Numbered from the stretch's first letter, positions 2,192-61,368 are shown. The stretch is 64,000 bases of DNA from Candidatus Poribacteria bacterium (GCA_965197475.1 CBDANF010000003.1:1952001-2016000), one strand, 5' to 3'. Program-made: numbers and translations. Notes: generated by a model not told the origin, from the letters alone.

Positions 2192-2193
2192 TT

Positions 2194-13599: not shown

Positions 13600-13626
13600 A
13601 CCTACGAGAAGTCTAGAGGAGGAAGC

Positions 13627-14820: not shown

Positions 14821-14824
14821 GGTT

Positions 14825-18044: not shown

Positions 18045-19030
18045 CGCTCATGTCAAGAGTAAGTGCTTTTGACGAGTTTTGCTATAAAATCAACACTGAC
18101 AGCTTTTAGATTCATGACGAACTCACAGATTGCGACGTAACCGGCGAGGAACTTTTTATGAACGCCACGAAAGGGACGAAGGAAGTTTCGCAGCGTCGTC
18201 CAGGCACCTTCAATCGTCCTTGTATGGATCTCGTAAAGACCATCACCGTCTGCGTCTCTTGCCCACTCGCCATCCTTATGGAGAACAATCTCACGGGCGC
18301 GCTGAATACGGTTATAGCCACGCCAACCATCCGTATACACCGTTGAAGTCGGCAACGTCCACTGATGAACGTGTGTTGAAAGCGTCGCAGAATCGGTGTG
18401 CCGCACAACACGTAATCTCAGGAGACCGCTTTCGCGACCTTTCGTCCCAACAATAGGCGGACGATCATTGTCATAAGTCCCATGTCCCCTGCGTTTATTG
18501 CCACGCCGACGCGGCGGATCCGAAGCATCAACGTGCTTATCGCCTTTTTCACCGGCGTTTTGAAACATCTCATCTGTTTCGACTTCAGCATCAGGTAAAG
18601 CAGCTTCGGGTTGTATCTGCTCTGCCGAAGTTTGGAGTTTACGTCTTATAGAAAGAACGGTTTGACGACTTAGACCCAGTTCACACCCGAGTTGTGCACT
18701 TGAAACACCTTGACAGACACCGCGCAAAAGCAGAACGACCTGTGAGGGACGAAACTGCGTGCCAGCAAAGACCGTCCCGGTATAGAGGTTGTAGATGCTC
18801 TCACAGTGTTTGCAGCGATACACTTGTAGACCACTTGTTTCAGTCGGACGGAACTTGCGTGCCTCCGCCACGCTCGCTTGGCATTTTGGGCAACACAGCC
18901 CTTGAAGGTGGAAATGATCCAACACCCACGCTTGAGTTTTTTCTTCATCCAGGAGAGATTGTATTGGAAAGTCCATAGGTAACACGCTAACATAACTTTG
19001 AAAAAATAGCACTTACTTTTTACATGAGCC
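18045..19030 (-). mobile_element. IS1595-family insertion sequence
   Basis: TIRs CGCTCATGTCAAGAGTAAGTGCT / AGCACTTACTTTTTACATGAGCC; 8-bp TSD AAGTTTTT at 18037-18044 and 19031-19038. Confidence 0.93.
18053..19012 (-). CDS. IS1595-family transposase
   Basis: CPKC/CKHC Zn ribbon, EVETDE, VYTDGWRGY, HTRTIEGAW; the true start may be ATG 18976. Confidence 0.92.
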   Translation of the reverse strand: MLFFQSYVSVLPMDFPIQSLLDEEKTQAWVLDHFHLQGLCCPKCQASVAEARKFRPTETSGLQVYRCKHCESIYNLYTGTVFAGTQFRPSQVVLLLRGVCQGVSSAQLGCELGLSRQTVLSIRRKLQTSAEQIQPEAALPDAEVETDEMFQNAGEKGDKHVDASDPPRRRGNKRRGHGTYDNDRPPIVGTKGRESGLLRLRVVRHTDSATLSTHVHQWTLPTSTVYTDGWRGYNRIQRAREIVLHKDGEWARDADGDGLYEIHTRTIEGAWTTLRNFLRPFRGVHKKFLAGYVAICEFVMNLKAVSVDFIAKLVKSTYS

Positions 19031-19038
19031 AAGTTTTT

Positions 19039-20129
19039 CAGGACTTACGCAATAATCTACAATTATGTTATACTGTTCTATTATGACTACATTTACACTT
19101 TCTAAAAAGAAGCACCACTTATTTTCTGATTATTGTCAATTTTTGTTAGCGAGTTTCACTAATTTTACACAAACCTATTTTGCAAACCATACGGAGAAGT
19201 GGAGCCATGATCAACTCAATCGTTTCCTGAGAAACGAAAACATTCCTTCAAGCGAACTCTGGGAATCTGTCAAAGACGACATTGCGTTTGATAAAGATGG
19301 ATACCTTATCTTTGACGATGTTGTGCTGTCAAAAATATATTCAAAACTGATTGAAGCTGCCTACCCTCAATGGAGTGGTAGCGACAAAAAGGTCATTGAA
19401 GGCATCGGTATTGTCACGTGTGTCTATGTTAACCCAAAGACACACGAGTATTGGATCATTGATTACCGCATTTTTGACAAAGACCCTGATGGTAAATCCA
19501 AAATTGATCATTTACTTGATATGTTGCACGATGCTTACTTCAAGAAACAACTCTCGTTTCGGACAGTGCTAATGGATGCTTGGTATGTATCCATGAAAGT
19601 AATGAAAGCGATTGCGGCACTTTCCAAGGTCTACTATGCGCCCCTGAAACGAAACAGGCTTGTAAATGATACGGATGGTGTTGAACCGCACCAGCAAGTC
19701 CAAGATTTATCTTGGTCTCCATCAGAAACGACACAAGGCAAACGCGTGCATATCAAAAGGTTTCCAAAAGGGTATCAAGTGAAGTTGTTCCGGATTGTGT
19801 CTGATACAGGACGCACGGAATATATTGTGACAAACGATTTATCTCAATCGGATGCGAAAGCGACAAAACAACAGTGTCGGGTTCGCTGGAAGATTGAGCA
19901 ACTTCATCGTGAAATCAAACAATTAACCGGTATTGACAAATGTCAATGCCGCAAACTGCGTGCCCAACGAAACCATATTGCGTGTTGTTTCCAGGTCTGG
20001 GTCTGCTTGAAGCGTGCTGCCCGGAAAATCACTCAAACGATTTACGAACTCAAACAAAGTTTATTGGATGATTACGGACGACATCAACTCTCTAATCCTT
20101 CAATAATCTTCAAAACTGCGTAAGTCCTG
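19039..20129 (+). mobile_element. IS701-family insertion sequence
   Basis: Perfect 13-bp TIR CAGGACTTACGCA / TGCGTAAGTCCTG; GTTTTT on both flanks (19033-19038, 20130-20135). Confidence 0.9.
19065..20123 (+). CDS. IS701-family DDE transposase
   Basis: SHD..NRFL, LIFDD, VLMDAWY, YIVTND, RWKIEQLHREIKQ motifs. Confidence 0.92.
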   Translation: MLYCSIMTTFTLSKKKHHLFSDYCQFLLASFTNFTQTYFANHTEKWSHDQLNRFLRNENIPSSELWESVKDDIAFDKDGYLIFDDVVLSKIYSKLIEAAYPQWSGSDKKVIEGIGIVTCVYVNPKTHEYWIIDYRIFDKDPDGKSKIDHLLDMLHDAYFKKQLSFRTVLMDAWYVSMKVMKAIAALSKVYYAPLKRNRLVNDTDGVEPHQQVQDLSWSPSETTQGKRVHIKRFPKGYQVKLFRIVSDTGRTEYIVTNDLSQSDAKATKQQCRVRWKIEQLHREIKQLTGIDKCQCRKLRAQRNHIACCFQVWVCLKRAARKITQTIYELKQSLLDDYGRHQLSNPSIIFKTA

Positions 20130-32416: not shown

Positions 32417-32591
32417 TACAGAGGTGTTGAAACGACTGAAGACAATTCCAGATAAAGAAAGGTAAATACGTTGAGATTATTGCCTTAGTAATAATATTCG
32501 GTGATATTCCACCGACATTAAAGTCAACGTTCCCGACGTTGACTTTATGAAAGACCGGCACCCGTGTGGGTGCCAAAAGGAGATGACGAAA

Positions 32592-34151
32592 ATGTTGAAC
32601 AAGACAACTTTGATTGCAGCTGCAATAGTTTCCCTATGTTTGCTCAGTTTTATCGGTTATAGTGATGCGTTTGAAATTAGTCAATTCATACCTCAGTCAG
32701 GTTCATATAAAGAGACCCTCATTGACATGGAATGTGGGAGCCACAACATTTATATAGAAACAGATACACCATTTAATACAGTCACTGTTTCTGTTACTGA
32801 TGCCTCTGGGAACTTTATCTGTTCACAAACTGAAAACGGAGATACGACAGAACAAATAAGTACTCTCATCTACATACCTTACAGCTACTTTTCAGACGCA
32901 AGCACCAGTGGTGTTAATTATACGATTTCAGTAGTAACATGGGGCTGGGACGGTGATGATGTATTACGTAAGGATACCGACTCCTACACGATCAAAGTCT
33001 ATGAACCTATCACTATTGAATATGTTGGATACGGTTCTGGTAGTTCAGAGAATATGATTGCTGGTGAAACTCACTACGGTTATGCGCAATTTGGCGAACC
33101 TTTCTTATTCGTCGATTGGTATGTAAGAGGTCCAGGCGAAACTGGACTTGGAACACTCGTGAATACAGACTGTGGTGATGGAACTTCAGCCATTTCTTAT
33201 TTTTCCCATGCGTTTGCCAGCGGCAGTACAACGGGTGAAGAGTACGAGATTACGGCTTATGCTTGGCCAGCCAGCAGTGAGGATTTCTCATCCGACCTCG
33301 GTGGATTTAATTGGGATTCCTACACCGTGACGGTATGGACTCCGCCTGAAGAAGTCATCACTACGCCAGACGAGCTCACAATTACAGACGACATCAAAAT
33401 TGGCGATTCTTATGCGTTTACTGTTGATGCCACATCCTCAAGTAGTAACTATGTTATTGATGAAATAGAGGTGTTTGTAGATGGAGTTTCTATAGCATCA
33501 CAAAGTTTCTCTGGGATAGGCAGTGCTTCACTAAATGTTACTGGTTCTCTTTCAACAGCTGCGGGCTCAAGTACGACTGTTACTGCAAGTATTAAAGGAG
33601 CCATATTGAAGGGCGGTATTCGGTTTGGAGCACTCTTTATATTCGATAGGATATGGACTGGGATTTTAAGGGGTACCGTTTGGGGTTATTGCCAATGTGC
33701 TGACGATGGTGATGAATTGGATAACAAGAGGTCAGTTGCATACACCTGCACAGTTGAGTCTGAATCGGGATCACAGGATGAACAACAAACTGATTACCGC
33801 GATAATTCTACGTCGGTTAAATGGACAGTTAGTACTGTGACACTTACAGATGAAGGAACAGATTGGACAACAGTTCATGGCAAATATTCCTTTCCGAATG
33901 ACGTGCCTTTTGGATTTGATGTCACGTTATGGCTCAAGTCTGATGATCTTCACGATCATGGTCAGTGCGGTCAAGCGACGCAGAAGCTAGTTTGTAAGTA
34001 TCAAGAGGATACGAACATTGGTAAGATAGGCAGGACTATCCTGAGATGGATTCCCCGGGACTGGGATAGGTTTCAGCATAACTTTAATGAATCACCCGTA
34101 ACCACATACGATCCCTGTGACGACCCTTATCCTGTTGAATTTGACGATTAA
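32592..34151 (+). CDS. Secreted acidic protein with about 3 Ig-like domains and a C-terminal carboxypeptidase-regulatory-like domain
   Basis: Signal peptide MLNKTTLIAAAIVSLCLLSFIGYSDA after AAGGAG; repeats STSGVNYTISV...DSYTIKVYEP and STTGEEYEITA...DSYTVTVWTP; C-terminal IWTGILRGTVWG...GKYSFPNDVPFG. Confidence 0.8.
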   Translation: MLNKTTLIAAAIVSLCLLSFIGYSDAFEISQFIPQSGSYKETLIDMECGSHNIYIETDTPFNTVTVSVTDASGNFICSQTENGDTTEQISTLIYIPYSYFSDASTSGVNYTISVVTWGWDGDDVLRKDTDSYTIKVYEPITIEYVGYGSGSSENMIAGETHYGYAQFGEPFLFVDWYVRGPGETGLGTLVNTDCGDGTSAISYFSHAFASGSTTGEEYEITAYAWPASSEDFSSDLGGFNWDSYTVTVWTPPEEVITTPDELTITDDIKIGDSYAFTVDATSSSSNYVIDEIEVFVDGVSIASQSFSGIGSASLNVTGSLSTAAGSSTTVTASIKGAILKGGIRFGALFIFDRIWTGILRGTVWGYCQCADDGDELDNKRSVAYTCTVESESGSQDEQQTDYRDNSTSVKWTVSTVTLTDEGTDWTTVHGKYSFPNDVPFGFDVTLWLKSDDLHDHGQCGQATQKLVCKYQEDTNIGKIGRTILRWIPRDWDRFQHNFNESPVTTYDPCDDPYPVEFDD

Positions 34152-34165
34152 GACTTCCGCGTATT

Positions 34166-34214
34166 TATATTAACAAGTTATAGGCACCACTTGGCACCTA
34201 TAACTTGTTAATAT
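34166..34214 (+). terminator. Long perfect stem-loop after the secreted-protein gene
   Basis: TATATTAACAAGTTATAGG-loop-CCTATAACTTGTTAATAT. Confidence 0.6.
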
Positions 34215-34333
34215 AACGTGAGTTCGGTATAAGCAATTTTTAGGAATTGGTGCGGTTAGAAACCGCACCTACCGAGGCTATCAGGTAGAATTCGAAGTAT
34301 TAAGAACTTCATATCTTACACCGAACGTACGTT
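34215..34333. mobile_element. MITE (TIR AACGTGAGTTCGG) with a REP hairpin
   Basis: 5-bp TSD AATAT; same family as 24851-24990; internal GGTGCGGTTAGAAACCGCACCTAC. Confidence 0.85.
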
Positions 34334-34356
34334 AATATAAACTTAAGGAACACACA

Positions 34357-34875
34357 ATGCGCAAACACGTTCATCCAATTTTCAACAATCGAACGGTTCC
34401 TATATTTATAATCTTACTGGCAATATTGGTTTTTATTGCTATTAATATGGCTGCAGAGCCCATCCTTTTGATATGGCATAATCTGTTTCGCGGAACGGTT
34501 TATGGTAAACTCATTGATGTCATTGACATTCCGGCTGGTGCAAGGCGAGTCAGTTACGCGAACAGTTCAGCTTTTCACGCTATTCCTGATCCTGTTGGAA
34601 GTGTAAAAGTTTCCTGGTATGCTATCGGTAGAACTAGACCAAAAAATTTCCTCGTTTTTACAAGTTCTACAGGCAATTACAACTTTATTCGCGAAGTACC
34701 GGTAGGGCAAACGCTAATCGTCAGAAGAACATTGAAGAATGGGGAGATCATCGAAAAGTATGTCCGTATTAAGAATACCAAATCGTTCCTTGGACTCCCT
34801 ATAGACAATGGAAGTCCGACCCAGCTTAATTTTACGAAAACCACTAAAATATCGATTGCGAATTCTAACCGTTAA
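34357..34875 (+). CDS. Membrane-anchored carboxypeptidase-regulatory/transthyretin-like beta-sandwich protein
   Basis: MRKHVHPIFNNR, TM helix, WHNLFRGTVYGKL...FTSSTGNYNFIREVPVG...FLGLP. Confidence 0.75.
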   Translation: MRKHVHPIFNNRTVPIFIILLAILVFIAINMAAEPILLIWHNLFRGTVYGKLIDVIDIPAGARRVSYANSSAFHAIPDPVGSVKVSWYAIGRTRPKNFLVFTSSTGNYNFIREVPVGQTLIVRRTLKNGEIIEKYVRIKNTKSFLGLPIDNGSPTQLNFTKTTKISIANSNR

Positions 34876-34910
34876 CACTTTACAATTCTACTTTTTACAA
34901 GGAGGTCACA

Positions 34911-36104
34911 ATGCGTTATCTATTCAGGTTTATTCTTTGCTGTGTTGTGTTTTCTGTTTACATGCTTACACCTATTGACGCAATAAAACTGAAAGATTTT
35001 AAATACTTAGGACTCATTCACCCGAATGTTTTTTCACCGGATGGCAATCGTCAAATTCTGATTGTGGAAAACAGATATCCTGGTGGATCCGTATTTTCAC
35101 TTAGGATTTGGACGATGGGTAAGAAGGGAACGCAACGTTTTGGTATTCATTCCCTCACCCCTGTCTATAAAGAGGTGGTCGCGGTTCCTGGTGGAAATAA
35201 TATTGGTTTTGTGGAGTTTGATACAACCCGCGGTTATAGTGTTCATATCCTTATGCCGGATACACTGGAGGCACAGCGGGATCTCGCTTACGAAAACAGC
35301 AGCCCTATAGAGCAGCTCCAATTTTCCAAAGATGGACAGTACTACTGTTTCTTTCTATCCTTCAAACCACACCCGTTTCAGTCGTTGGAGCAAAAGATGA
35401 GTAAAAAAGTTTCTTTAGTACTCCAACCTCCAGGGTGGATGATCTACAAAAAAGATGGGGATTTTACTCCGAATAAGGATGGCGGCCTCATTTTCTCTAA
35501 GCAAGAAAAAGAAGCGTTTACAGAGTGGGCACCGATTGAAAAACCGAAAGTGATTCCGAAGCTTTTCACACAACCGATGCCTAAAATTACCTTGGAAACG
35601 CAGGTGCAATGGTCCCCAGATTCGAAATATATCTATGTTTTAGATGACACAGGTATCTGGCGAGTAAAACCAATTCCTACCTATTTTCCAATGTGGACGA
35701 AGGTGGTAAACGCGAAAAGGGTGCTTCGATTTCGTCTCTCACAGACAGGAAACAAGTTATTGTATGAAATAACTCCAGATTTGAAAGCTCAATCTGATGT
35801 GGAAATAAGAAAGGACCCGCATGGATTGGAAAACGAAATTTGGTTGGTATCCCTCGACCCGATCAACGTTGAAAAAGCGTTACCTACAAAAGCCGAGGCA
35901 ATAGCAGCGAGAGGTCCCGTATGGCAACTTGATGTAACCACAGAACTGTCTCCCCGAAAAATTGCAAAAGGATGGGGCGCCTCCTTTAATCCTTATGGTA
36001 AGTCAGTAAATTATGCTGACCTTGAAGGTGGGAAGATATTAAACCTTGAAACAATGAAATCTGGGCTTGTTGAGTGGACAGCGAGAAAGACTTTGAGGTT
36101 TTAA
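34911..36104 (+). CDS. Secreted TolB/WD40-like beta-propeller protein
   Basis: Signal peptide ending IDA; FSPDG, FSKDG, WSPDSKY, LSQTGNKLLY, FNPYG blades; AGGAGG RBS. Confidence 0.75.
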   Translation: MRYLFRFILCCVVFSVYMLTPIDAIKLKDFKYLGLIHPNVFSPDGNRQILIVENRYPGGSVFSLRIWTMGKKGTQRFGIHSLTPVYKEVVAVPGGNNIGFVEFDTTRGYSVHILMPDTLEAQRDLAYENSSPIEQLQFSKDGQYYCFFLSFKPHPFQSLEQKMSKKVSLVLQPPGWMIYKKDGDFTPNKDGGLIFSKQEKEAFTEWAPIEKPKVIPKLFTQPMPKITLETQVQWSPDSKYIYVLDDTGIWRVKPIPTYFPMWTKVVNAKRVLRFRLSQTGNKLLYEITPDLKAQSDVEIRKDPHGLENEIWLVSLDPINVEKALPTKAEAIAARGPVWQLDVTTELSPRKIAKGWGASFNPYGKSVNYADLEGGKILNLETMKSGLVEWTARKTLRF

Positions 36105-36940: not shown

Positions 36941-39900
36941 TTATTGAAATTCACCTCTCACCGTCAGCGCACTTGCAATGGAGAGGAAATCCCTACCCTC
37001 TTCAACCCTATCGTGGTTGTAGCTAAGTCCCAAATGTAGATTCGCCGTTAGATGGTCACTGAGTTTGTAACCTGCGCGTAACGTTGTCTCGTAACGCTCA
37101 GAACGTTCCTCCTTATTGGCACCGTAGTTTTCCCTACGTATTGCCAAAGAGAAGGTATTGGTCAGGTCAAGGTCGTGCTTAAGTGGAATTCTGCCAAAAA
37201 ATGGCACGCGGATACCGCCTTCGGTCCGGTAGCGATAGTCAATACTAAAATTGGGTGTGATGATGAGCGCGTTACTCTCAATTCCGCTGCGCAGATGGTC
37301 ACGGAGGGTCGTACGAATCCCTAATGAAGTTCTGGTTTCTTCACTCCATTTGTGGATCCAACTTAGAGACGGCGTATGTGCGGCACTGTCGCTAAGGGTT
37401 ACTTCAAGGTTCGCACTCTGCCGTATCGTAAAACTATACCGTAGTTGGAAACTGGATGCTTGTTGTGGATTGATCTTGACATCCGCTTCGTAGGTCTCCG
37501 CGTGTGATGTAAAAGTGCTACCATAACTTTTCCGAAAACTATCGGCTGTGCTGAGATTAGTTCCGAAAGAGAGCGATTTCCACGGACTTACGGAAGTCCG
37601 TACTGTGTAGCGGTTGCTTTTCCGTGAATTCGTCCGTTCATTTGCTTCTGGATCAAGCCTCCAAATCTCTATCAAAGATTGCCCGGACACAAGTTGGCGA
37701 AAGGATTCGGTAGCGGTGAAATTGGCATTGGTGTTAATCGTAAATGAATTGATTATTCGATGAAATAGTCCTTCTTGTGCAGTAGCAGGCGTATTCTTTT
37801 GTGCTGTATCCATCTCGACTTTATCGCGGTTAATCCAATCGGTTTGCTCCTCAGCTAACTTTTGGATTTGGGTTTCGTCAATACCATTTTCCCGCAACTG
37901 TTCAAGTTGCTGTTCTGCCAGTGGCTTTTTTCCCAATTTTTGAATTGTTGCATCCTCACTCTCTTTTATCTCTTCGGTTTCCGGTTTTTCTTTAGGCAAA
38001 AGCCATCCGAACCATTTTTGAATGCGTAGATTCAAACCGAGACTGATGTTTCCGTTGAGTGAAGCGTCTTTCTGTGAAGTGAACCAGTTTTCTCGAAAGC
38101 TCATACGACTTGTCACCGTGGGACGAAGACCAAGAAGATCGCGATTAAGGCGGGGGGTGAGTGAAAGTCGGTGCTCTCGTGCGGCAATAGAAAAATCAGA
38201 CAGCGTATCTTCACTGGCATCCTCTTCTACAGAAGAATCAGGGGTAGAGACCCCTCCTACAGTAAACGAAGAACGATATCGATTTTGATCACGTCTTTCA
38301 AGCGTTCGCCGCACATCGTAACTCGGGCTGAGACTGAATACGTTTATTGGACTGATGTTAAGCGTAATGGAACCGCTGTCTGTTTTTTCATCCCGATTTC
38401 TACCGTAACCATAACTGTAGTAGGAAGCTGATGATCCAGTTGTATCCGTTGCAGTTTCAGGCTTTGCGAGGATATCCTCATGCCGATACTGCACATTGAA
38501 CCCAAGTTTTGAACCGATATTGTACCGAAAAGTTCCCGTATATAGATGACTAATCTGTGTTCCTTGCCGCTCGTTCCAAAAATCCTGATAATTGTAGGCG
38601 AATCCAAGGTTGGGGAGGGGATTGCGTCTGAATTGCACTGAGACATCTCGGTTGTGAGTCTCACTCTTTCCACTTTGAAAAGAGCTGTAGCTGCCTCGTA
38701 GTGCCTCAGTTTCAGATTCCTGTTCCTTGATGGAATATCGGATTGGCAGCCAGGAAAAGAGTGTGACATCCGCATCAATATTGTAATCGTTGTTGGTTGT
38801 ACTATATCCTCTGGATGACAGACGTTGTCGCCCGATTTCACCTGCACCACTCTCAAAATCTTTGTCTTGGCTTGCGTAGCCACCGCGAAGCTCAATGATG
38901 CTACCCAGCGAAACGGACATGTTACCCCGGCGTGCCCATCCAGAGCGGATAAGTGGATCCCCAAGGTGGATTTCGTTAACCCAAACCTCACCACTAATTT
39001 CGCGCTCAGTGTCGTTTCGGATACCGAGCAATATACCACCGATATTTTTGATAGATAGCTGCGTTCTGCTTACCCCAGTTTCTGTGCCTCTGACAGTAAA
39101 ACCATCCGGATGTCCGTCAGGTGCATTTTGTGTGGGAGATGGTTGTGATTGCTGATTTGGTGTATCTATATCCTCAGTCTGATCTTCAATCCGATCCGGA
39201 TATTCATTCAAACTGTGGTCGCGTAGGTCAATTTCAATCAGTTTCCATCCTTCAAAGTTAATCAGTACGGTGTATTCATAATAGTCTGTTAGATTTTCAA
39301 AGATATTGACATCTTCTTCCTGTTGAGGTTGGTTGAGGAAGGAATCAGAACTATAAAAGGAACTTCGGTAGCCCGTGCGCACACTGGGTGCAAGTTGTAG
39401 GACAAAGGTGGTATAACTTCTATCACCGTACAACCAAAATCGAAGTGTGTCGTGTTTGCTAAAGTCCTGACCTTCGCTCTGCGTAAAACCTCTTAGCTGC
39501 TTGGAGGTGATGCCGTGGGATCCAGGGTAGAGATAGTATTCCAGGCTAAGCGTCTGCTCGCGTTGTTGCTGTGTTTGAAAACCGAGAGACGTCGCTGTGA
39601 ACGGATGTAGTTTTCTAAAAAGTTCATCGTCTTCGATTTCTAAATACGCGCTCTGATAGTCGTCATAACTGAAGTTATCCTTTGTGCCGACGATGAACTT
39701 TTCGATCGTATCTTCAACAACTTTTTGATCGGAAAGTCCGGTGGTTGTTTCTGTGAAGGATTGTGTGACGAGTCCCTGTTCCCATCTATTCCCAACAATT
39801 TCGATAGATGCCCATTGGAATGTGCCCTTGACGTTGCCAGGACGGTTCTTCATAAGCCAGAGGCGGAAATGTTGTACAAATACAAGGCTGGGAACACGCG

Positions 39901-42900
39901 ATCCTTCCGGTAAAAATTCAGAGAGCGGAATGCTAAGGAACGTCCATCCATTACTGTTTTTACTTTTAACCCATTCGTTGGGAATTTCATTGAGGGGAAC
40001 AGCAATCTGAAAATATGCATCAACGCTATCAAGCACGCCGTCGCCATTTAAATCCTCGCTATCCAAAATTTGATTGTCTGCACCAAGAGACTCTGGCTGA
40101 AATGCACCGTCATAACGCCAACCAACGTCTTCCCCAGTGTCCAGCTCACCGTTACCACGATATCGAAGTGCATCCGGCAGATTTTCAAGGTCAAGGTCAA
40201 GTGCGTCAACAATGTTGTCTCCGTTCGTATCCTCTAACGTCTGTGGAAGGTCTTCACTGTCAAGCCGTCCATCAGCATCTGTATCTTCATTTACGGCACC
40301 GACGTTGAGATAGAGCGTCACATCGTCGTCACCCTGTACGCGCATCCACATTTCAATAAAACCGCGTTCAGAATAGTCAACGCCAGATTTTGATATGCCG
40401 TTTGAGAAACCTCCCCACTCTTCAACGACATCTGTAAAATCATATCCAATTTCCATAATCAACCGTTCCTCGGTCGAGAGCGAAAGTGGCTGAATTGACG
40501 ATGCAGGTACATCTCGGTTTCGCATATAGTTGCCAACGGCTTCCGATTCTTCCCTATCTTTCAAAGCAACCTTAAAAAGTGCTCTATTCTCCTGCGTCGG
40601 TAACACAGTATAATTGTGTGTAGGTGAATCTGTCTGTTCCGATTCTGGGATGTATGGCACGCTACTCGGTTTCCAGTTGTATTTAATAGTTGGTATTGTT
40701 GTTGTTTCCTTCACGCCCTCCATGCTATCAATCAGTGCCACGCCGATGCTGTTCGGATTGTTGTGTGAATAAGCCGACTCCCCGCTAAAGTCAATGGAGA
40801 GCGGGAAATTTTGGACATTCACAAGAGGCAGCGGGTTTAGCAGCCATGCTATATTGAAAGATCTACCGAAACTTGTGTTGATATTAAACGCTTGCAATCG
40901 GTTGGGAACGCTGTTTACATCCGGTATCTCAGCAGGTTTCTGCCCTGTAGTTAAGATATAGCCTGTTGAGATGGTAAACCCTTTTTGGAAAATCGGATTG
41001 AAATAATTCATGCCGGTTCCATAACCCCCCAAATAACTGGGTCCGATTCTCGAACGGCCGCCAAAACTTCCGAAACTGCTATATCCGCCGCTAAAGTCAC
41101 TGCCACCGAAACCGGTTCTACCTAATCCTCTGTTAGCACGCGAACCAGTAAGCGGAAAATTCTCAGAAAACGGGTCTTTGCCAAGATTGTTATTATCCAA
41201 ACCTATCTGTGTTGTTGGCATTCCTCCCAAACGATTGAACCTGTCCTCAAGATTCTGTTCTTTCACCGATTTGGGTTTCGGTTTATGTGTATATTCTACC
41301 CAAATACCTGCAACTGCTTGTTGTGAACCGCCACCGAACGGCGTTTTTTCAAATTCCACTACGATCTCGTCAAATTCATCAAGTTTTTTGAAAAATCGGA
41401 TTGTTCCGACTTCGTAAATCATCATGTAATCTGTGTCTCGCGTGAGGAGTTTTCCGTTTAAACGCACGGTTTCGCTGTCTGGAATAACAAATAATCCGAC
41501 ATTATAAGTTTCGGATTGATAGGAATAATCAGCAACAATTGTGTAAATCTGGTCAGATCTACGGATGGACTCAAGATAAATGGCTTCGTTGTTCAGTGAC
41601 TCTTGATATCGGTAGTATGGATGGTTCGGATCGTTAATTTGAAAGGGATGTAAATTTGGGAAACGTAACAATCCTCTATCGTAGTCAATGAATTCAGGAT
41701 CAACGATGCCATCCGCGTTTTGGTCTAATCCGAAAATTTCGATGTATGGCACAAGACCTGTGTCAGTCTGAAATGTCTCACTTTCTCCCTGTCGGATAAT
41801 TGTCAACTGAAAATCGCGAGGATTGATGTTTCTGTTGCCAAGGAAGTAAACGTTATCTGAAACTGTCCCGCGAAACCCCTTCGTTTTTAATACAACATAG
41901 CCAACCTCTTCACCCTTTTCATCAATAGAACTGTCTCCATTTTCATCTGCAAAGACGTTTCCTGGTTTTCCGACACTTCCACCGCCATTTCCCAGATATT
42001 CATAAGCAACAACGATAGTATAACTGGAGGCAATAGCGGATAAGAACTCAATCTCACCGGTTTGATAGTCAATGTTGTAGTCCTGTCCGGGAAACTGTGG
42101 GTTGAAGTAGCCTTGACTCGTCCGTTTGCCACCTTGGTTATTGCCGACGACGCTATCATCAATATAGATTTCCACACTACCCTGTTTGATTGGAAGATAT
42201 GCGTCGTGCAGTAAACCATCCTCGCCTTGATGTATTAAATAGTATCTATTTTTTACGTAATTCGCATCTGCGATCTGATTGCCGCGTGGCCCATATCCGT
42301 AGCTTGACCTCCGAGACTGTCCACGGAACGTACGCACTTCACGGACACCCTTACTTCTCGATCCGAAAGCGGTTACACGGGTGTTTTTATATTCAAATAC
42401 ACCTTCAAGTCCAAAAAGATTGCGGTTGATATTCAAGAATCGAGTGTTCGGCAGACTAAGCATGATGTCACCGAATGAGATAGTTTTGATGAAACTTTCA
42501 GGTTTGCCTTCATACCAAATTTTAATCTTCTGTTCTTTTGCACCACCAAGTCCGTATCCACCGTAGCTACTTGAACCGCCATACCCGCCACCGTAGGTAT
42601 CACCGGCATTATAATCCACTGCGATATGTGTCCGTTCACCTACACGACCGTGCAATCCAATCTTTTGCTGTTGTCTGATATTGATACTTGTAGCACGTGG
42701 AATACCACTCCTGCCGTAGCTACTGTACCCACTCCCATAACCTGACTCGAAACTGTCATATCCGCCGCCAAACCCGCTACTGTAGCCAAAATCTTCATAA
42801 CCGTACGAGGAGCTAAGACCGAGATCAAGTCCAGAACCGTACTCTCCATAGCTACCGTAACCATAGCCTCCATAGCGGTTCAAATCACCTTCGCCGAAAT

Positions 42901-43363
42901 AATGTGTCTTATTAACTTCAATTGTCACCGACTGGTAACCTGTTATCTGTAGGTTTGAATCCATAGGGAGATCAATCCCTTTGGTATCAGTTTTTCGACG
43001 GGATTTCCAATCGTAGAGTTCGGAGAGATCACCGAGATCGGGTGGATATTTCCAACGACGTAGCGTTTCTAAGTACGGCATCAGTACCTGACGGCGCAAG
43101 GATATATCAGAATCTGTATCTTCAGTTATTGATGGATCGTCTGATGTTTTAGTTTCAGATTCACGCTCGGTCCACGTATCTTTTTTCGGCTTATTGCTAA
43201 ACGGATTCTCACCCGGGGGCGGAGAGGTAGGCTCCTGTTGGGCGGGTGGAGTAGCTTCGTCTTTGTTCGCAGGTAAGGCAGGTTTTGCAAAAACAAGAAA
43301 ACAGAGTGCGACGGTAATCAACAAACTATATGCGGACTTTGGGTTCAAAAGAATATGCTCCAT
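36941..43363 (-). CDS. sprA: SprA/Sov-like giant outer-membrane beta-barrel (type IX secretion translocon homolog)
   Basis: Signal peptide. Motifs in SprA order: QQQKIGLHGRVGERTHIAVDY, IKIWYEG...IKTISFGDIMLSLP...LFGL, YIEIFGLD, GLLRFPNLHPF, PDSETVRLNGKLL.RDTDY...YEVG, WGG......DYSERGFIEMW, LYLNVGAVNED, SGEVWVNEIHL. Amphipathic beta-strand C-terminus ending VRGEFQ. Confidence 0.85.
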   Translation of the reverse strand: MEHILLNPKSAYSLLITVALCFLVFAKPALPANKDEATPPAQQEPTSPPPGENPFSNKPKKDTWTERESETKTSDDPSITEDTDSDISLRRQVLMPYLETLRRWKYPPDLGDLSELYDWKSRRKTDTKGIDLPMDSNLQITGYQSVTIEVNKTHYFGEGDLNRYGGYGYGSYGEYGSGLDLGLSSSYGYEDFGYSSGFGGGYDSFESGYGSGYSSYGRSGIPRATSINIRQQQKIGLHGRVGERTHIAVDYNAGDTYGGGYGGSSSYGGYGLGGAKEQKIKIWYEGKPESFIKTISFGDIMLSLPNTRFLNINRNLFGLEGVFEYKNTRVTAFGSRSKGVREVRTFRGQSRRSSYGYGPRGNQIADANYVKNRYYLIHQGEDGLLHDAYLPIKQGSVEIYIDDSVVGNNQGGKRTSQGYFNPQFPGQDYNIDYQTGEIEFLSAIASSYTIVVAYEYLGNGGGSVGKPGNVFADENGDSSIDEKGEEVGYVVLKTKGFRGTVSDNVYFLGNRNINPRDFQLTIIRQGESETFQTDTGLVPYIEIFGLDQNADGIVDPEFIDYDRGLLRFPNLHPFQINDPNHPYYRYQESLNNEAIYLESIRRSDQIYTIVADYSYQSETYNVGLFVIPDSETVRLNGKLLTRDTDYMMIYEVGTIRFFKKLDEFDEIVVEFEKTPFGGGSQQAVAGIWVEYTHKPKPKSVKEQNLEDRFNRLGGMPTTQIGLDNNNLGKDPFSENFPLTGSRANRGLGRTGFGGSDFSGGYSSFGSFGGRSRIGPSYLGGYGTGMNYFNPIFQKGFTISTGYILTTGQKPAEIPDVNSVPNRLQAFNINTSFGRSFNIAWLLNPLPLVNVQNFPLSIDFSGESAYSHNNPNSIGVALIDSMEGVKETTTIPTIKYNWKPSSVPYIPESEQTDSPTHNYTVLPTQENRALFKVALKDREESEAVGNYMRNRDVPASSIQPLSLSTEERLIMEIGYDFTDVVEEWGGFSNGISKSGVDYSERGFIEMWMRVQGDDDVTLYLNVGAVNEDTDADGRLDSEDLPQTLEDTNGDNIVDALDLDLENLPDALRYRGNGELDTGEDVGWRYDGAFQPESLGADNQILDSEDLNGDGVLDSVDAYFQIAVPLNEIPNEWVKSKNSNGWTFLSIPLSEFLPEGSRVPSLVFVQHFRLWLMKNRPGNVKGTFQWASIEIVGNRWEQGLVTQSFTETTTGLSDQKVVEDTIEKFIVGTKDNFSYDDYQSAYLEIEDDELFRKLHPFTATSLGFQTQQQREQTLSLEYYLYPGSHGITSKQLRGFTQSEGQDFSKHDTLRFWLYGDRSYTTFVLQLAPSVRTGYRSSFYSSDSFLNQPQQEEDVNIFENLTDYYEYTVLINFEGWKLIEIDLRDHSLNEYPDRIEDQTEDIDTPNQQSQPSPTQNAPDGHPDGFTVRGTETGVSRTQLSIKNIGGILLGIRNDTEREISGEVWVNEIHLGDPLIRSGWARRGNMSVSLGSIIELRGGYASQDKDFESGAGEIGRQRLSSRGYSTTNNDYNIDADVTLFSWLPIRYSIKEQESETEALRGSYSSFQSGKSETHNRDVSVQFRRNPLPNLGFAYNYQDFWNERQGTQISHLYTGTFRYNIGSKLGFNVQYRHEDILAKPETATDTTGSSASYYSYGYGRNRDEKTDSGSITLNISPINVFSLSPSYDVRRTLERRDQNRYRSSFTVGGVSTPDSSVEEDASEDTLSDFSIAAREHRLSLTPRLNRDLLGLRPTVTSRMSFRENWFTSQKDASLNGNISLGLNLRIQKWFGWLLPKEKPETEEIKESEDATIQKLGKKPLAEQQLEQLRENGIDETQIQKLAEEQTDWINRDKVEMDTAQKNTPATAQEGLFHRIINSFTINTNANFTATESFRQLVSGQSLIEIWRLDPEANERTNSRKSNRYTVRTSVSPWKSLSFGTNLSTADSFRKSYGSTFTSHAETYEADVKINPQQASSFQLRYSFTIRQSANLEVTLSDSAAHTPSLSWIHKWSEETRTSLGIRTTLRDHLRSGIESNALIITPNFSIDYRYRTEGGIRVPFFGRIPLKHDLDLTNTFSLAIRRENYGANKEERSERYETTLRAGYKLSDHLTANLHLGLSYNHDRVEEGRDFLSIASALTVRGEFQ

Positions 43364-57627: not shown

Positions 57628-58809
57628 ATGCACACATTTTTACGCTTACATTTTTTATGCCTTCTTCTGATAATTTTGGGACTACTGAGTTTCTCACTAT
57701 CAGTTTTCGCAGAAGAAGCCTCTGACGAGAACATCGCTACCAAAAGCCCACAGTACCCAGAAACATCTACTTATAAATTACAAATTGGCGACAGTATTGT
57801 TGTTACGGTTGAGGGGTATCCTGAATATACCAAAGACCGCTCCCCTATTCCGATTCAACCGGATGGATTTATCTCCTATCCGCTTATTGGACTTATCAAG
57901 GCAATAGGTTTGACAGTTCCAGAACTTGAGGCGCAGATGCAGCAGGTTTTTTCCAAAAAACTTCCAAGTGTACGAGTGTTTGTTACCCTGATGCAACCGA
58001 GACGGAACATTTTGGTGTTTGGAGCAGTTGAACGCAGACCAAGAGGAAACATGCATGTTTTTGAAACTGGACAGGTGTATCTGATGCATGCTTTGGCAGC
58101 GGCTGGTGTCAACAACGAACTTGCGGATCTCACACAAATTGCTATATGGCGCGACGGTAAGGTTTTTAAAACGGTTAATTTTCAAGAACATATTGAATCA
58201 GGAGACTTAGATATCCCTTTGAAGGATTACGATATCGTCATTGTCCCATCTATTTATGCACAACGGCGGATTCGGATAATTGGGGCTGTGACAACTCCGG
58301 GCTATTATTCGATAACGAATCTACAAATCCCGGTAACCCAAGCATTGAAACTCGCTGGCGGTGCCAAATCAGAATTTGCAGACTTAAAAAAATCTGAGAT
58401 CATTAACGATATTGGAAATACACCTGTGGATCTCACTTCTGAAAACATAGCCGTTGTGTTGTTGCATGGAGAGACTTTATATATTCCGCTTGCAGATACC
58501 AAAATCAGTGTTGTTGGTGCAGTTGAAAAGCCAGATCAATACATAATTACTGAGCCGATCCTTCTAAGAGATGCTGTTGCAATGGCTGGCGGGTTAGATG
58601 AGGCAAAAGCGAACCCAAAAAAGTGTATTCTCACACGAGCGGATGGGACACAAGAAGAAATTAACTTCATTTTGGCACAATCAGAGGTTTATCTCCAACC
58701 GAACGACCAACTCCGAATTTTAGAACGAACACGTATAGATTGGCGAGTGCTGAGTTTCGCTGCTTCACTGATCAACTTGGTCGTTAGCGTTTGGCTCAGA
58801 TATGGATAG
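57628..58809 (+). CDS. Polysaccharide export protein with SLBB domains (Wza-like)
   Basis: YKLQIGD, PDGFISYPLIG.IKA.GLT, repeated GAV..PG/PD...AL..AGG SLBB units, C-terminal amphipathic helix. Confidence 0.9.
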   Translation: MHTFLRLHFLCLLLIILGLLSFSLSVFAEEASDENIATKSPQYPETSTYKLQIGDSIVVTVEGYPEYTKDRSPIPIQPDGFISYPLIGLIKAIGLTVPELEAQMQQVFSKKLPSVRVFVTLMQPRRNILVFGAVERRPRGNMHVFETGQVYLMHALAAAGVNNELADLTQIAIWRDGKVFKTVNFQEHIESGDLDIPLKDYDIVIVPSIYAQRRIRIIGAVTTPGYYSITNLQIPVTQALKLAGGAKSEFADLKKSEIINDIGNTPVDLTSENIAVVLLHGETLYIPLADTKISVVGAVEKPDQYIITEPILLRDAVAMAGGLDEAKANPKKCILTRADGTQEEINFILAQSEVYLQPNDQLRILERTRIDWRVLSFAASLINLVVSVWLRYG

Positions 58810-58868
58810 AAGAGAACAGCAATCAACGGAAAGATCAATGTTCTCTCTTTCATTCTTTTAAATATTTA

Positions 58869-58957
58869 TACCAAATTAACTTGATCCCACTCGGTAGGTA
58901 CGGTTTCTAACCGCACCTAATACCAAGAAAAATGAGATAAATCAAGTTAATTTGAGA
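58869..58957. mobile_element. TACCAAATTAAC-family MITE with a GTAG REP, between wza and wzc
   Basis: CAAATTAACTTGAT / ATCAAGTTAATTTG inverted repeat; internal GTAGGTACGGTTTCTAACCGCACC. Confidence 0.75.
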
Positions 58958-58971
58958 TTATATGGAATTAG

Positions 58972-61368
58972 ATGAGTATATGGAACAGGATGAGGAAAAT
59001 GCCAGAAACTACCGATAGAAAACTTGAAGAAATTACTGAAATCCGACTATTAGATTATTTTTGGATACTTTTCCGGAATAAATGGAGTGTCCTTTTAATA
59101 TTTTTTCTTTGCGTGTTGGCTGCATTTCTCATTACTGACACCACGCCAAAGGTTTATCAATCCGAAACGACCCTTCGTATACTTGACGGTCAACCACCTA
59201 CTTCGTTAATATCAGGGCTCCCATTATCAGGAATCCTTAAGGGGACATCGTTAGGGACGTACGTTACCCTACTACAATCACGAGACTTAATTATCGCGCC
59301 AACAGTCCAACAACTCATAGATGAAGGACTGTTAGAACCAAGACCTATTCACAGAGGTAAAACTGTGGTGGAGTTGGCAAATCTTCTGAACATTGAATTA
59401 GATTCGTCCGTTACCGAGCAAGGTGAACTCTCTGATACAGAGTGGAGAGACTATTTCATTAAGACACTTATTGATGAGAAATTGAAGGTTGAAGAGTCCC
59501 AGGATGGGAACATGATTTCCCTCACGGTGAAGCAGCAGAAACCAGAAGACGCGCAGCTTTTGTGTAACAGAATTGCGACTACACTTGTGGAAACAATTGA
59601 AGCGGAAAAAGAGCAAGATATGAAATGGTGGGAAAAACCGCTTCCGCAGACAATGCTCAATGAAGCAATACAGAAACTGAAAACATCTGAAAAGGAACTC
59701 TTTGATTTTCAGAAAGATAATTCTGAACTAACCTTAAATGCTGAGAGTGGCACACAAGCACAACTCGTTTTAGCCCTACAGTTAAGTGAAAACGAATTAG
59801 CAAGTCAACTGATTGGGGCTGAATTGAAACATGATTCTTATAAAGAAGACTTGAAGGACGTTGAAGAGGAACTAATCTCTGAAACAGTCGCGAGAAATCC
59901 TTCATATTCGAAACTGCAAGATAACTTGAACGAATATGAAATTGAAAAAAAAGCACTTATTGGAAAATACGGAGATGTAACACATCCTGAAATTACCTCT
60001 TTGAATGAAAAAATAAATGAGACGAAAGAGCGCCTTCAAGGCGAGGAAAAAGAGATAAAAAGTACAACTTCCTCTTATAACCCCTTATACCAAGTTCTTG
60101 CACAAAAGGTTAATGAAACTGAAGCGGCAATTATTAGTCTTAAGAAGCAAAAGGCGGAGGTATCCGCTGAAATTGATAAACGTATCAAGGAGGTCGGTGG
60201 ATGGTCAGAGAAACATCTCGACTTGTTTCGGTACAAGCGGAATGTCGAAATATACAGCGCGCAGGTTATTACTTTAGAGGCGAAAATACGGGAGTCACAA
60301 ATTGTCGCAGAAGCACGTACTGATAGTATCAAGGTGTTAGATCAAGCGCGTCTATCTGAAGAGCCTATAAAACCACGGATGAAGATCAATCTTGTTTTAG
60401 GGGCGATGCTTGGTGGTTTGCTCGGACTTACATTTGCTGTTGTCAAAAATTATTTCAAAGACACTTATTTGCGATTAGAAGACTCTGTTCGTCAATTGGA
60501 TTCGTTGGCAGAACCTCCCAGTTTCCTTGGCGTAATTCCATCCATAAAAAAACGGAGTGCATACCAGATTCCACTCATAGTTAATGACGCACCTAATTCC
60601 AGAGCAGCGGAAGCATTTAGAGTACTTGTAGCGAAACTACCATTTCTCAACCTCGGTAGCGAGTTGAAAACTGTTCTCGTCACGAGTTCTACGCGCGGAG
60701 AAGGTAAAAGTACTATTTCTTCTAATCTTGCAGCTGCGTTCGCACAAAAAGGTAGCAAGGTCCTGCTAATTGATGCTGATATGCGCAGACCTTCTCAACA
60801 CACAATTTTTCCACCAGGGCAGTTACTTCAGATTACAGCACAAGATGAAATAGATATAGGCGATAGTGATACATCTGAGACGCATGAGGTTACCCACAGT
60901 GACCCACGTAAACCGGGGTTGAGCGAGGTATTAATTACCATAAACTCAGAAAATAGTTATGATGTTCTACAGTCAACAGTCAGGCAGACCGGTATCCCTA
61001 ATTTACATTTTATGCCGGGTGGAACTGTTCCGCCAAATCCAATTGAATTATTGAATTCAGACATGATGACGCAATGGCTTGAAGTGGCAAAATCAGAGTA
61101 CGATGTAATAGTGATTGATTCTCCACCCGTGCGTGCTGTAGCGGATCCAGTTATTTTGGCAACTGTCGTTGATGCTGTCGTTTATGTGTTTGACATAACG
61201 AAAACCAAACGTTTTGATGTGTTGACAGGGATCAGACATCTTAAGGATGTCTTACCGGAGAAGTGTATCGGGGTGGTGTGTAACATGATAAATCCGAAAC
61301 ACGCCAAATCTTATGGATACTATAATAGACATGCTGGTTATTATGAACTAACAGATGAGAGGAGTTAA
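58972..61368 (+). CDS. Polysaccharide co-polymerase / tyrosine autokinase (Wzc-like)
   Basis: Two TMs with a coiled coil, EAFR, GEGKST, LIDADMRRP, PPNP.ELL, VIDSPP, Tyr-rich tail YGYYNRHAGYY. Confidence 0.93.
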   Translation: MSIWNRMRKMPETTDRKLEEITEIRLLDYFWILFRNKWSVLLIFFLCVLAAFLITDTTPKVYQSETTLRILDGQPPTSLISGLPLSGILKGTSLGTYVTLLQSRDLIIAPTVQQLIDEGLLEPRPIHRGKTVVELANLLNIELDSSVTEQGELSDTEWRDYFIKTLIDEKLKVEESQDGNMISLTVKQQKPEDAQLLCNRIATTLVETIEAEKEQDMKWWEKPLPQTMLNEAIQKLKTSEKELFDFQKDNSELTLNAESGTQAQLVLALQLSENELASQLIGAELKHDSYKEDLKDVEEELISETVARNPSYSKLQDNLNEYEIEKKALIGKYGDVTHPEITSLNEKINETKERLQGEEKEIKSTTSSYNPLYQVLAQKVNETEAAIISLKKQKAEVSAEIDKRIKEVGGWSEKHLDLFRYKRNVEIYSAQVITLEAKIRESQIVAEARTDSIKVLDQARLSEEPIKPRMKINLVLGAMLGGLLGLTFAVVKNYFKDTYLRLEDSVRQLDSLAEPPSFLGVIPSIKKRSAYQIPLIVNDAPNSRAAEAFRVLVAKLPFLNLGSELKTVLVTSSTRGEGKSTISSNLAAAFAQKGSKVLLIDADMRRPSQHTIFPPGQLLQITAQDEIDIGDSDTSETHEVTHSDPRKPGLSEVLITINSENSYDVLQSTVRQTGIPNLHFMPGGTVPPNPIELLNSDMMTQWLEVAKSEYDVIVIDSPPVRAVADPVILATVVDAVVYVFDITKTKRFDVLTGIRHLKDVLPEKCIGVVCNMINPKHAKSYGYYNRHAGYYELTDERS

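Follow-up and report, generated by a model that had tools for sequence, protein, structure and literature searches.

In type 9 secretion, the giant pore of the outer membrane is known as SprA in Flavobacterium johnsoniae (structures 6H3I, 6H3J, 8GL6, and 8GL8) and as Sov in Porphyromonas gingivalis. In the available text of Abby et al. 2016 (PMC4793230), type 9 systems are assigned to Bacteroidetes only, and in that of a 2024 paper (PMC11285876) other phyla of the FCB (Fibrobacteres-Chlorobi-Bacteroidetes) group are allowed, with T9SS (type 9 secretion system) genes absent elsewhere. For the Poribacteria, the accessible part of Kamke et al. 2014 (PMC3909097) describes TIGR04183 tails on many eukaryote-like proteins, WD40 proteins above all; as worded there, the structural genes were not found and the secretion pathway "remains to be revealed" (PMC3909097). 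The DNA analyzed here is a stretch of 64,000 nucleotides from Candidatus Poribacteria bacterium (GCA_965197475.1 CBDANF010000003.1:1952001-2016000), hereafter referred to as the window, and the gene in question is an open reading frame (ORF) for 2140 aa on its minus strand (36941..43363). This gene very probably encodes the poribacterial form of this pore, SprA/Sov, which by analogy with the Flavobacterium system probably exports the many tailed, eukaryote-like surface proteins of this lineage.

The poribacterial protein shares with F. johnsoniae SprA and P. gingivalis Sov its probable nature as a giant outer-membrane protein of more than 2000 aa, an N-terminus that resembles a signal peptide, and collinear homology along most of its length, together with an acidic loop cluster and the co-occurrence with PorV-family carriers, PorU-like sortases, and type A sorting tails. 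It differs from both in a score below the cut-off of the SprA model, the presence of two Gly/Ser/Tyr-rich segments, a host placed outside the FCB group by NCBI taxonomy, and the failure to detect PorK/L/M/N. With the SprA proteins of other FCB phyla, it is alignable over the full length, and GldM_1st is likewise undetected in those phyla (none of 10 genomes). In the one other phylum scored, which belongs to the FCB group, SprA exceeded the TIGR04189 cut-off in 41 of 41 genomes (200-570 bits), unlike the Poribacteria copies, which do not exceed it.

The minus-strand ORF, starting with ATG, was confirmed as genuine. The SprA model TIGR04189 matched its product with an E-value of 4e-46 (157 bits) in five stretches that follow the order of the model within one open frame, and the same model matched none of 14 control genomes. 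The SprA-type motifs in collinear order, on which the initial annotation had based its proposal of a SprA-like translocon, were thus recovered. Comparison of profiles by hhalign, Poribacteria sequences only against FCB-group SprA, gave a probability of 100 and an E-value of 1.7e-109 over 1580 columns, covering residues 232-2071. A mixed profile of Poribacteria sequences and 10 distant homologues hit F. johnsoniae SprA (6h3i_A) with an E-value of 5.1e-140 over chain residues 63-1903. The public contigs of the distant homologues are labeled KSB1, Calditrichota, Zixibacteria, Marinimicrobia, Latescibacterota, and Gemmatimonadota, all FCB-group relatives of the Bacteroidota, and one of these proteins carries the NCBI name "T9SS outer membrane translocon Sov/SprA". 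A precomputed label of the Pfam family SprA_N (PF14349) is present on many homologues in the same clade as the protein under study. The protein is a true but very divergent homologue of SprA/Sov.

Since the pieces matched by TIGR04189 end at model position 1503 of 2319, residues 1400-2140 were chosen for structure prediction. With an alignment of 69 sequences, AlphaFold2 predicted about 28 long antiparallel strands at a predicted local distance difference test score (pLDDT) of 75.4 and a predicted template modeling score (pTM) of 0.66. The top Foldseek matches of this C-terminal model were chains of SprA (8gl8_A with E 2.7e-10, 8gl6_A with 2.4e-9, and 6h3j_A and 6h3i_A with about 4e-8), with MtrB in between. 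Superposition by VIA-align of model residues 74-741 onto residues 1516-2400 of 6h3i_A gave the longest alignment, 517 residues with a Z of 16.7 and a root-mean-square deviation of 11.4, and places the model on the collinear part of the chain. Comparison with the cryo-EM barrel of SprA, which the initial annotation had suggested, supports the proposal by the Foldseek ranking, for residues 1400-2140, and leaves it tied with other barrels by VIA-align.

The features of the protein, listed below with their positions in the window, all lie on the minus strand.

36941..43363, minus strand: sprA/sov-like gene for the predicted outer-membrane translocon, 2140 aa (ORF, TIGR04189, hhalign; 61 of 61 Poribacteria genomes)
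43268..43363, minus strand: signal-peptide-like N-terminal region, residues 1-32 (sequence read directly)
42668..42916, minus strand: residues 150-232, the first of two low-complexity segments rich in Gly/Ser/Tyr, found only in Poribacteria copies (composition comparison)
42230..42694, minus strand: match to TIGR04189 model positions 128-257 (E 1.1e-7, 30.1 bits; from G000:C3:1994230-1994694)
41288..42097, minus strand: match to TIGR04189 model positions 375-672 (E 1.6e-11, 41.7 bits)
40994..41137, minus strand: residues 743-790, the second segment rich in Gly/Ser/Tyr, inserted when compared with FCB-group SprAs (falls in a template gap of the hhalign alignment)
40571..40846, minus strand: match to TIGR04189 model positions 722-815 (E 3.5e-6, 24 bits)
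40250..40432, minus strand: match to TIGR04189 model positions 895-960 (E 1.6e-4, 18.5 bits)
40019..40306, minus strand: acidic Asp/Asn-rich loop cluster, residues 1020-1115, with DTDADG, DTNGDN, and DLNGDG (motif counts, alignments)
38729..40081, minus strand: best TIGR04189 match, model positions 1082-1503, containing the weak Pfam SprA_N match (E 1.1e-18, 65.8 bits)
36944..39166, minus strand: C-terminal third, residues 1400-2140, with about 28 long antiparallel strands, the predicted portion of a barrel wall (AlphaFold2)

The N-terminus starts with positive charges, continues into a hydrophobic stretch at about residues 13-25 and is followed by AKPALPA; as read directly from the sequence, it resembles a signal peptide, in agreement with the initial description of a 2140-aa protein with a signal peptide. 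The C-terminus of the Poribacteria SprA appears beta-signal-like, as had also been proposed: the protein ends in VRGEFQ with Phe at the second to last position, and Phe stands second to last in nine of 13 Poribacteria copies and last in one of 13. A terminal aromatic residue is missing in the copy of the window. The claim of several DxDxDG loops was overstated as to the strict motif, which occurs once (residue 1027). The relaxed patterns [DN]x[DN]x[DN]G (residues 547, 1027, and 1104) and [DN]x[DN]G[DN] (residues 473, 1045, and 1104) occur three times each, above the means of 0.04 to 0.37 found in shuffled sequences. The acidic loops are a trait of the SprA family, because the acidic positions are conserved family-wide, being invariant or nearly so across the two family alignments (A1 and A2). 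From the motif pattern, the cluster at residues 1020-1115 might bind calcium.

The two Gly/Ser/Tyr-rich segments distinguish the Poribacteria branch: both are present in all 13 Poribacteria copies compared and in none of 59 FCB-group SprAs. In the first (residues 150-232), the median fraction of Gly, Ser, and Tyr was 0.60 in the 13 Poribacteria proteins and 0.19 in the same columns of the 59 others. The second (residues 743-790) has a median length of 50 aa in Poribacteria versus 13 aa in the others, with Gly/Ser/Tyr fractions of 0.70 versus 0.31. Over any 40 aa, the peak fraction was 0.68 or more in each of the 13 Poribacteria proteins and did not exceed 0.55 in any of the 59 others.

A search of protein databases gave 117 homologues among 7997 candidates scored. 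A total of 101 were close (37-85% identity), and the four of these with an organism name were all from "Candidatus Poribacteria", annotated as hypothetical or LysM-domain proteins; the nearest relatives outside Poribacteria, the FCB-group SprAs, showed 22-28% identity. The source of the DNA had been taken as a probable poribacterial genome, and this was upheld; in NCBI taxonomy, Poribacteria stand under Bacteria incertae sedis and not in the FCB group. All 61 Poribacteria genomes sampled (13 genera, eight families) carry the sprA-like gene, as one ORF of 2010-2340 aa wherever the contig is intact. The phylogeny proposed in the initial annotation was constructed from 72 full-length SprAs (13 Poribacteria, 59 FCB group) over 1817 columns, using MAFFT in fast mode and FastTree with LG+gamma; the set comprised sequences of at least 1900 aa and contained none from Bacteroidia. 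All 13 Poribacteria copies formed one clade (support 1.0), whose stem measures 1.97 substitutions per site; the mean patristic distance was 0.99 inside this clade, 2.13 for the remaining sequences, and 4.27 from one group to the other.

This distribution bears on the origin of the gene. A foreign origin, by recent transfer from a bacterium of the FCB group or through contaminating sequence in the assembly, is hardly credible, even though the estimated contamination of 6.97% could be taken to speak for it: the gene sits among housekeeping genes on a contig of 4.17 Mb, its GC content (0.436-0.459) is unremarkable against that of the window overall (0.384-0.475), it is present in every Poribacteria genome sampled, and the Poribacteria clade lies far from all 59 FCB-group sequences. 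Because that clade is monophyletic and long-stemmed, old vertical inheritance fits and recent transfer or contamination does not. The sprA-like gene thus appears to be a core, vertically inherited gene of Poribacteria.

The assembly consists of 5.7 Mb in three contigs with a completeness of 92.7%, and the neighbors of the sprA-like gene include mutS2, dnaG, rpoD, a pyrB/argF-type carbamoyltransferase gene, rnhB, thiI, others, and ORFs of no known family. As stated in the initial annotation, the window contains no porK/L/M/N, porV, or gld gene, as judged by Pfam scans of its 41 other ORFs (four rescanned at a laxer threshold). The neighborhood is not conserved: when the regions flanking sprA in 12 other Poribacteria were compared by blastp (E < 1e-5), none of eight window neighbors had a match there. 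The description of the translocon as stand-alone therefore applies to the position of the gene and not to the system as a whole, for which partners are encoded elsewhere in the genome (see below). In Bacteroidota, too, sprA and sov usually stand apart from the genes of their partners.

The candidate cargo was identified by its sorting tails. The type A tail model TIGR04183 gave 57 matches genome-wide, 53 of them above the cut-off, and 54 could be mapped to ORFs of at least 60 aa; 49 of these 54 end five residues or fewer from the stop codon, and the N-terminus is strongly hydrophobic in 44 of the 54. Upon alignment of 19 tails, the mean column identity was 68%, with the motifs NYPNPFNPETWIPY and RKMLIRK. 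For type B tails, the model TIGR04131 yielded a single weak match in the genome (21.1 bits, below the cut-off of 35). A sorting signal different from that of the Bacteroidota had been predicted at the outset, and this prediction has to be withdrawn, given the 53 canonical type A tails.

The domain scan covered 19 of the 54 proteins with tails, drawn from the 41 best tail matches; one fragment (144 aa) and three ORFs longer than 3400 aa were excluded. Among these 19, five carried WD40 repeats, five leucine-rich repeats (LRR; one protein with both), five cohesin, and eight dockerin domains. Low-density lipoprotein (LDL)-receptor class B repeats were found in two, cadherin/Big_9, FG-GAP, and LVIVD in one each, and one protein was a sulfatase. 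The predicted cargo set thus comprises about 50 large proteins, with mostly eukaryote-like repeat and adhesion modules in the 19 scanned. As a separate observation, two adjacent sulfatase-type genes at G000:C2:21001-25083 (locus L137, 21001-23052) encode proteins that have both a twin-arginine-like N-terminus (RRDFLSTSLK) and a type A tail. Type 9 cargo is usually described as Sec-dependent, and a combination of the twin-arginine (Tat) route with a T9SS tail would be unusual.

Relatives of the known partners are also encoded in the genome. A barrel of 323 aa matched Pfam PorV (PF19572) with 51.2 bits over a cut-off of 27 and the PorV/PorQ family model NF033709 with 204 over 90; its assignment is at the family level only, being below the cut-offs of the single members (PorV 92.5 of 250, PorQ 129 of 220, PorV2 107 of 325). 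In the PDB, its profile matched PorV only (6h3i_F, E 2.4e-24). A second barrel of 359 aa reached 88.4 bits in NF033709, against the cut-off of 90, and 100 bits in the PorV2 model. PorV is present in 60 of 61 Poribacteria genomes. Three PorU-like proteins of 1744-2186 aa scored 374, 412, and 371 bits against a PorU cut-off of 420, each with a C-terminal tail of its own, and each of the 61 Poribacteria genomes has PorU-like genes, with one to three strong matches. A PorP/SprF-like barrel (PF11751, 26.3 bits over a cut-off of 22.3) is encoded by a 330-aa frame directly upstream of a tailed protein. The NCBIfam models PorU2 (NF052324) and PorV2 (NF052325) matched the PorU-like proteins with 160-218 bits and the PorV-like barrels with 100-107 bits, far below the respective cut-offs of 450 and 325; a search of the literature found no paper describing these models, which are named for a "putative type IX sorting system". 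The initial expectation of different partners was not confirmed: a PorV/PorQ-family barrel, three PorU-like sortases, and a PorP/SprF-like barrel are present. The whole-genome search for partners thus turned up the PorV family and PorU-like proteins and failed to detect PorK-N.

The interaction of carrier and tail was examined by structure prediction. The complex of the PorV-like barrel with a cargo tail was modeled with a score of 0.76, the best control being 0.00; contacts agreed by at least 97% between runs, and the pLDDT of the partners was at least 88. In an approximate calibration of the score with own alignments, 116 of 157 solved complexes attained this mark, as did two of 215 mismatched pairs. 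The pass of the modeled pair may reflect likeness only and is not a proof of binding, because complexes of PorV with tails have already been solved.

In several Poribacteria (G003, G102, G086, G092, G079, G110, and others), a PorU-like gene lies 8-40 kb from sprA on the same contig, at a distance of about 8 kb in G003 and G102; the three PorU-like genes of the genome under study are far from its sprA. In the vicinity of the PorV-like gene, at a distance of 1-6 kb (G000:C3:3545164-3550135; L031:11164-16135), are located a gene with PAPS-reductase/Sp-DndD domains and a CBASS-type-like pair of SMODS and SLATT_4.

The co-occurrence of these components also bears on whether a SprA-derived barrel has been reused in Poribacteria, for instance for uptake or export of a polymer, with the tailed proteins leaving by another route. 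The long stem branch of 1.97 substitutions per site, the lineage-specific Gly/Ser/Tyr-rich inserts, and the lack of a conserved gene neighborhood would all be compatible with such a change of function, and no RNA run is listed as holding the gene. Such reuse is nevertheless improbable, as SprA, PorV, and PorU-like proteins co-occur (61, 60, and 61 of 61 genomes), the genome under study carries 53 tails above the cut-off, and homology to SprA extends over nearly the full length. Moreover, no other export route is known to recognize TIGR04183 tails.

The assignment as a type 9 pore is supported by homology, by conservation throughout the phylum, by the co-occurrence with tails, carriers, and sortase-like genes, and by the modeled interface between carrier and tail. 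The transport function, the order of steps, the processing of tails, and the anchoring at the surface we infer by analogy with the Flavobacterium system. Proteins with an N-terminal signal peptide and a type A tail of about 90 aa would first cross the inner membrane into the periplasm. A carrier barrel of the PorV/PorQ family within the SprA pore would then bind the tail, and the cargo would move outward through the SprA barrel. PorU-like C25 peptidases would finally remove the tail, perhaps also attaching the cargo to the cell surface.

A number of results weigh against this assignment. With regard to homology, the TIGR04189 match, significant as the initial annotation had foreseen, stays with 157 bits under the equivalog cut-off of 200 bits, and the Pfam SprA_N (PF14349) match at residues 1438-1541 (23 bits, E 4.4e-5) is below its cut-off of 27. 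Neither a phmmer search of the PDB with the protein nor a search with the profile of 22 Poribacteria homologues, the latter even at E 10, found SprA. With regard to fold, the Foldseek TM-scores of the C-terminal model are low (0.34-0.37), the Z-scores of VIA-align tie SprA with other large barrels (Z 14-17, with OprC and MtrB as high), and the prediction covers the C-terminal third and does not show a closed barrel of 36 strands. As to the partners, the PorV-like barrel and the PorU-like proteins miss their equivalog cut-offs, and three proteins matching PorZ do so only in the tail part of the model (positions 665-757). The lack of an RNA run listed for the gene counts here as well. PorK/L/M/N were undetected in Poribacteria, no genome searched being known to hold GldL/M/N, and in the model for Flavobacterium, as given in the available text, the substrate binds the carrier in the SprA pore and the motor is needed for release of the complex of carrier and substrate, the step that requires energy (PMC10994853).

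The search for these motor and ring proteins was negative at several levels. The TIGRFAM models of GldL, GldM, and GldN had no match in the genome under study, and among 21 Poribacteria genomes GldL and GldN were each without a match at E <= 0.01, while GldM_1st (PF12081) exceeded its cut-off in none and gave a weak match in five; the weak match inspected proved to be a glutamate-rich coiled-coil protein and was rejected as GldM. The GldK model gave 41 matches in the genome, all to generic FGE-sulfatase domains and none above 117 bits, where the cut-off is 350, and no K-L-M-N-like operon was found beside the 18 mapped FGE-domain genes (20 match sites checked). A scan independent of sequence for adjacent genes with two and one transmembrane (TM) segments, in the manner of gldL-gldM, gave six candidates, none convincing. 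The same blank was observed outside Poribacteria: TIGR03517 matched none of eight genomes, and GldM_1st none of 10 FCB-group genomes with SprA, none of 41 genomes in the phylum with SprA above the cut-off in 41 of 41, and none of 31 in another phylum. With SprA scores of only 200-570 bits, the phylum of the 41 genomes does not resemble Bacteroidia. In its available text, the genome paper of Caldithrix also reports no gliding machinery of the Bacteroidetes type.

Two explanations of this blank have to be weighed. In the first, Poribacteria would possess a core of SprA, PorV/PorQ carriers, PorU-like sortases, and a PorP-like barrel, truly lacking PorL/M and PorK/N, with the release of cargo driven otherwise. 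All of the negative results above point in this direction, including the lack of an operon, the best PorK candidate being nearer to FGE proteins, and the equal blank in SprA-bearing genomes elsewhere; with a chance slightly short of even, this explanation is a real possibility. On the other side, absence of the motor and ring is not shown, because no genome known to hold GldL/M/N was among those searched. Power of detection was also low: SprA of the genome under study scored 0.07 bits per model position, and at such a divergence GldL and GldN would score less than 20 bits, below detection. The genome is 92.7% complete, and transport in Flavobacterium requires an input of energy (PMC10994853, available part).

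In the second explanation, the type 9 system would be complete and canonical, and PorL/M/K/N too divergent for hidden Markov models (HMMs) trained on Bacteroidota. The components that were recognized score far below or near their cut-offs (SprA 157 of 200, PorU 371-412 of 420, PorV 92.5 of 250), and smaller proteins could easily escape notice; some motor is also suggested by the need for energy in the known mechanism, in the text cited above. Against a hidden motor stand the results for GldL and GldN (0 of 21 at E <= 0.01) and for GldM_1st (weak in five of 21, above the cut-off in none), the failure to find a gldL-gldM-like pair by membrane architecture, and the lack of a K-L-M-N-like operon beside the 18 FGE-domain genes. 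A complete but unrecognized system is plausible, at somewhat less than an even chance. The blank extends beyond Poribacteria, which leaves two readings: outside Bacteroidota the motor has generally diverged too far, or a core without it is widespread.

A motor-less variant of the type 9 pore is accordingly put forward as a possibility. In its fullest form, which we propose only tentatively and hold a little below even chance, a core of SprA, PorV/PorQ, and PorU-like proteins would have been inherited vertically from before the addition of PorKLMN in Bacteroidota, would serve these sponge-associated bacteria as the route to the surface for eukaryote-like WD40, LRR, cohesin/dockerin, and cadherin proteins, and would be energized otherwise.

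FGE-domain genes are expanded in this genome, the 41 matches of the GldK model including tandem clusters, for example, at C2:1403025-1407024 and C3:1121012-1124233. Directly upstream of the 359-aa PorV-family barrel, an FGE-sulfatase lipoprotein is encoded (G000:C3:3009426-3011410; locus L138). It was considered as PorK and rejected, as it scored higher for true FGEs (121 bits) than for PorK (87 bits).

With the assignment of the gene as the Poribacteria SprA, the structural genes missing from the account of 2014 would be represented by the sprA-like gene and its partners, which fills a gap stated in print. These genes have been overlooked because their scores fall below curated cut-offs. The published confinement of type 9 secretion to Bacteroidota or to the FCB group is apparently not upheld by the Poribacteria homologues, and the range of the type 9 translocon would extend to a phylum outside the FCB group. 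What appears to be new is a very divergent SprA together with a canonical tail signal and recognizable relatives of PorV, PorU, and PorP outside the recognized range. A literature search found no report on type 9 machinery in Poribacteria, with subscription journals outside its coverage, and nothing relevant on partial or minimal type 9 systems. Two sponge-microbiome papers and one on Flavobacteriaceae name Poribacteria a single time, and the sponge papers make no connection there with type 9 secretion. The gene offers a testable export route linked to proteins that are thought to mediate the contact of symbionts with sponges. If the absence of the motor is true, the core in the outer membrane would predate the complete machine of Bacteroidota and be more widespread than it, and the energy source of the core would come into question.

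Several other features were observed in the window. Two runs of three ORFs each are without a Pfam family, at 12382-16000 (405, 397, and 429 aa) and 32547-36104 (534, 172, and 397 aa); the latter are also without an NCBIfam family, are convergent with sprA, and are not found beside sprA in 12 other Poribacteria. Two divergent transposase genes, one IS1595-like (DDE_Tnp_IS1595) and one of DDE_Tnp_1, are located at 18053-20123. A polysaccharide export pair at 57628-61368 consists of a Wza-like protein (Poly_export, SLBB) and a Wzc-like protein (Wzz, GNVR, P-loop). At the beginning of the window (2-4328, minus strand), three consecutive and partly overlapping ORFs with WD40 repeats (the first, of 732 aa, extends beyond the window; the others have 426 and 359 aa) could represent one large eukaryote-like repeat gene that has been split, or a tandem family.

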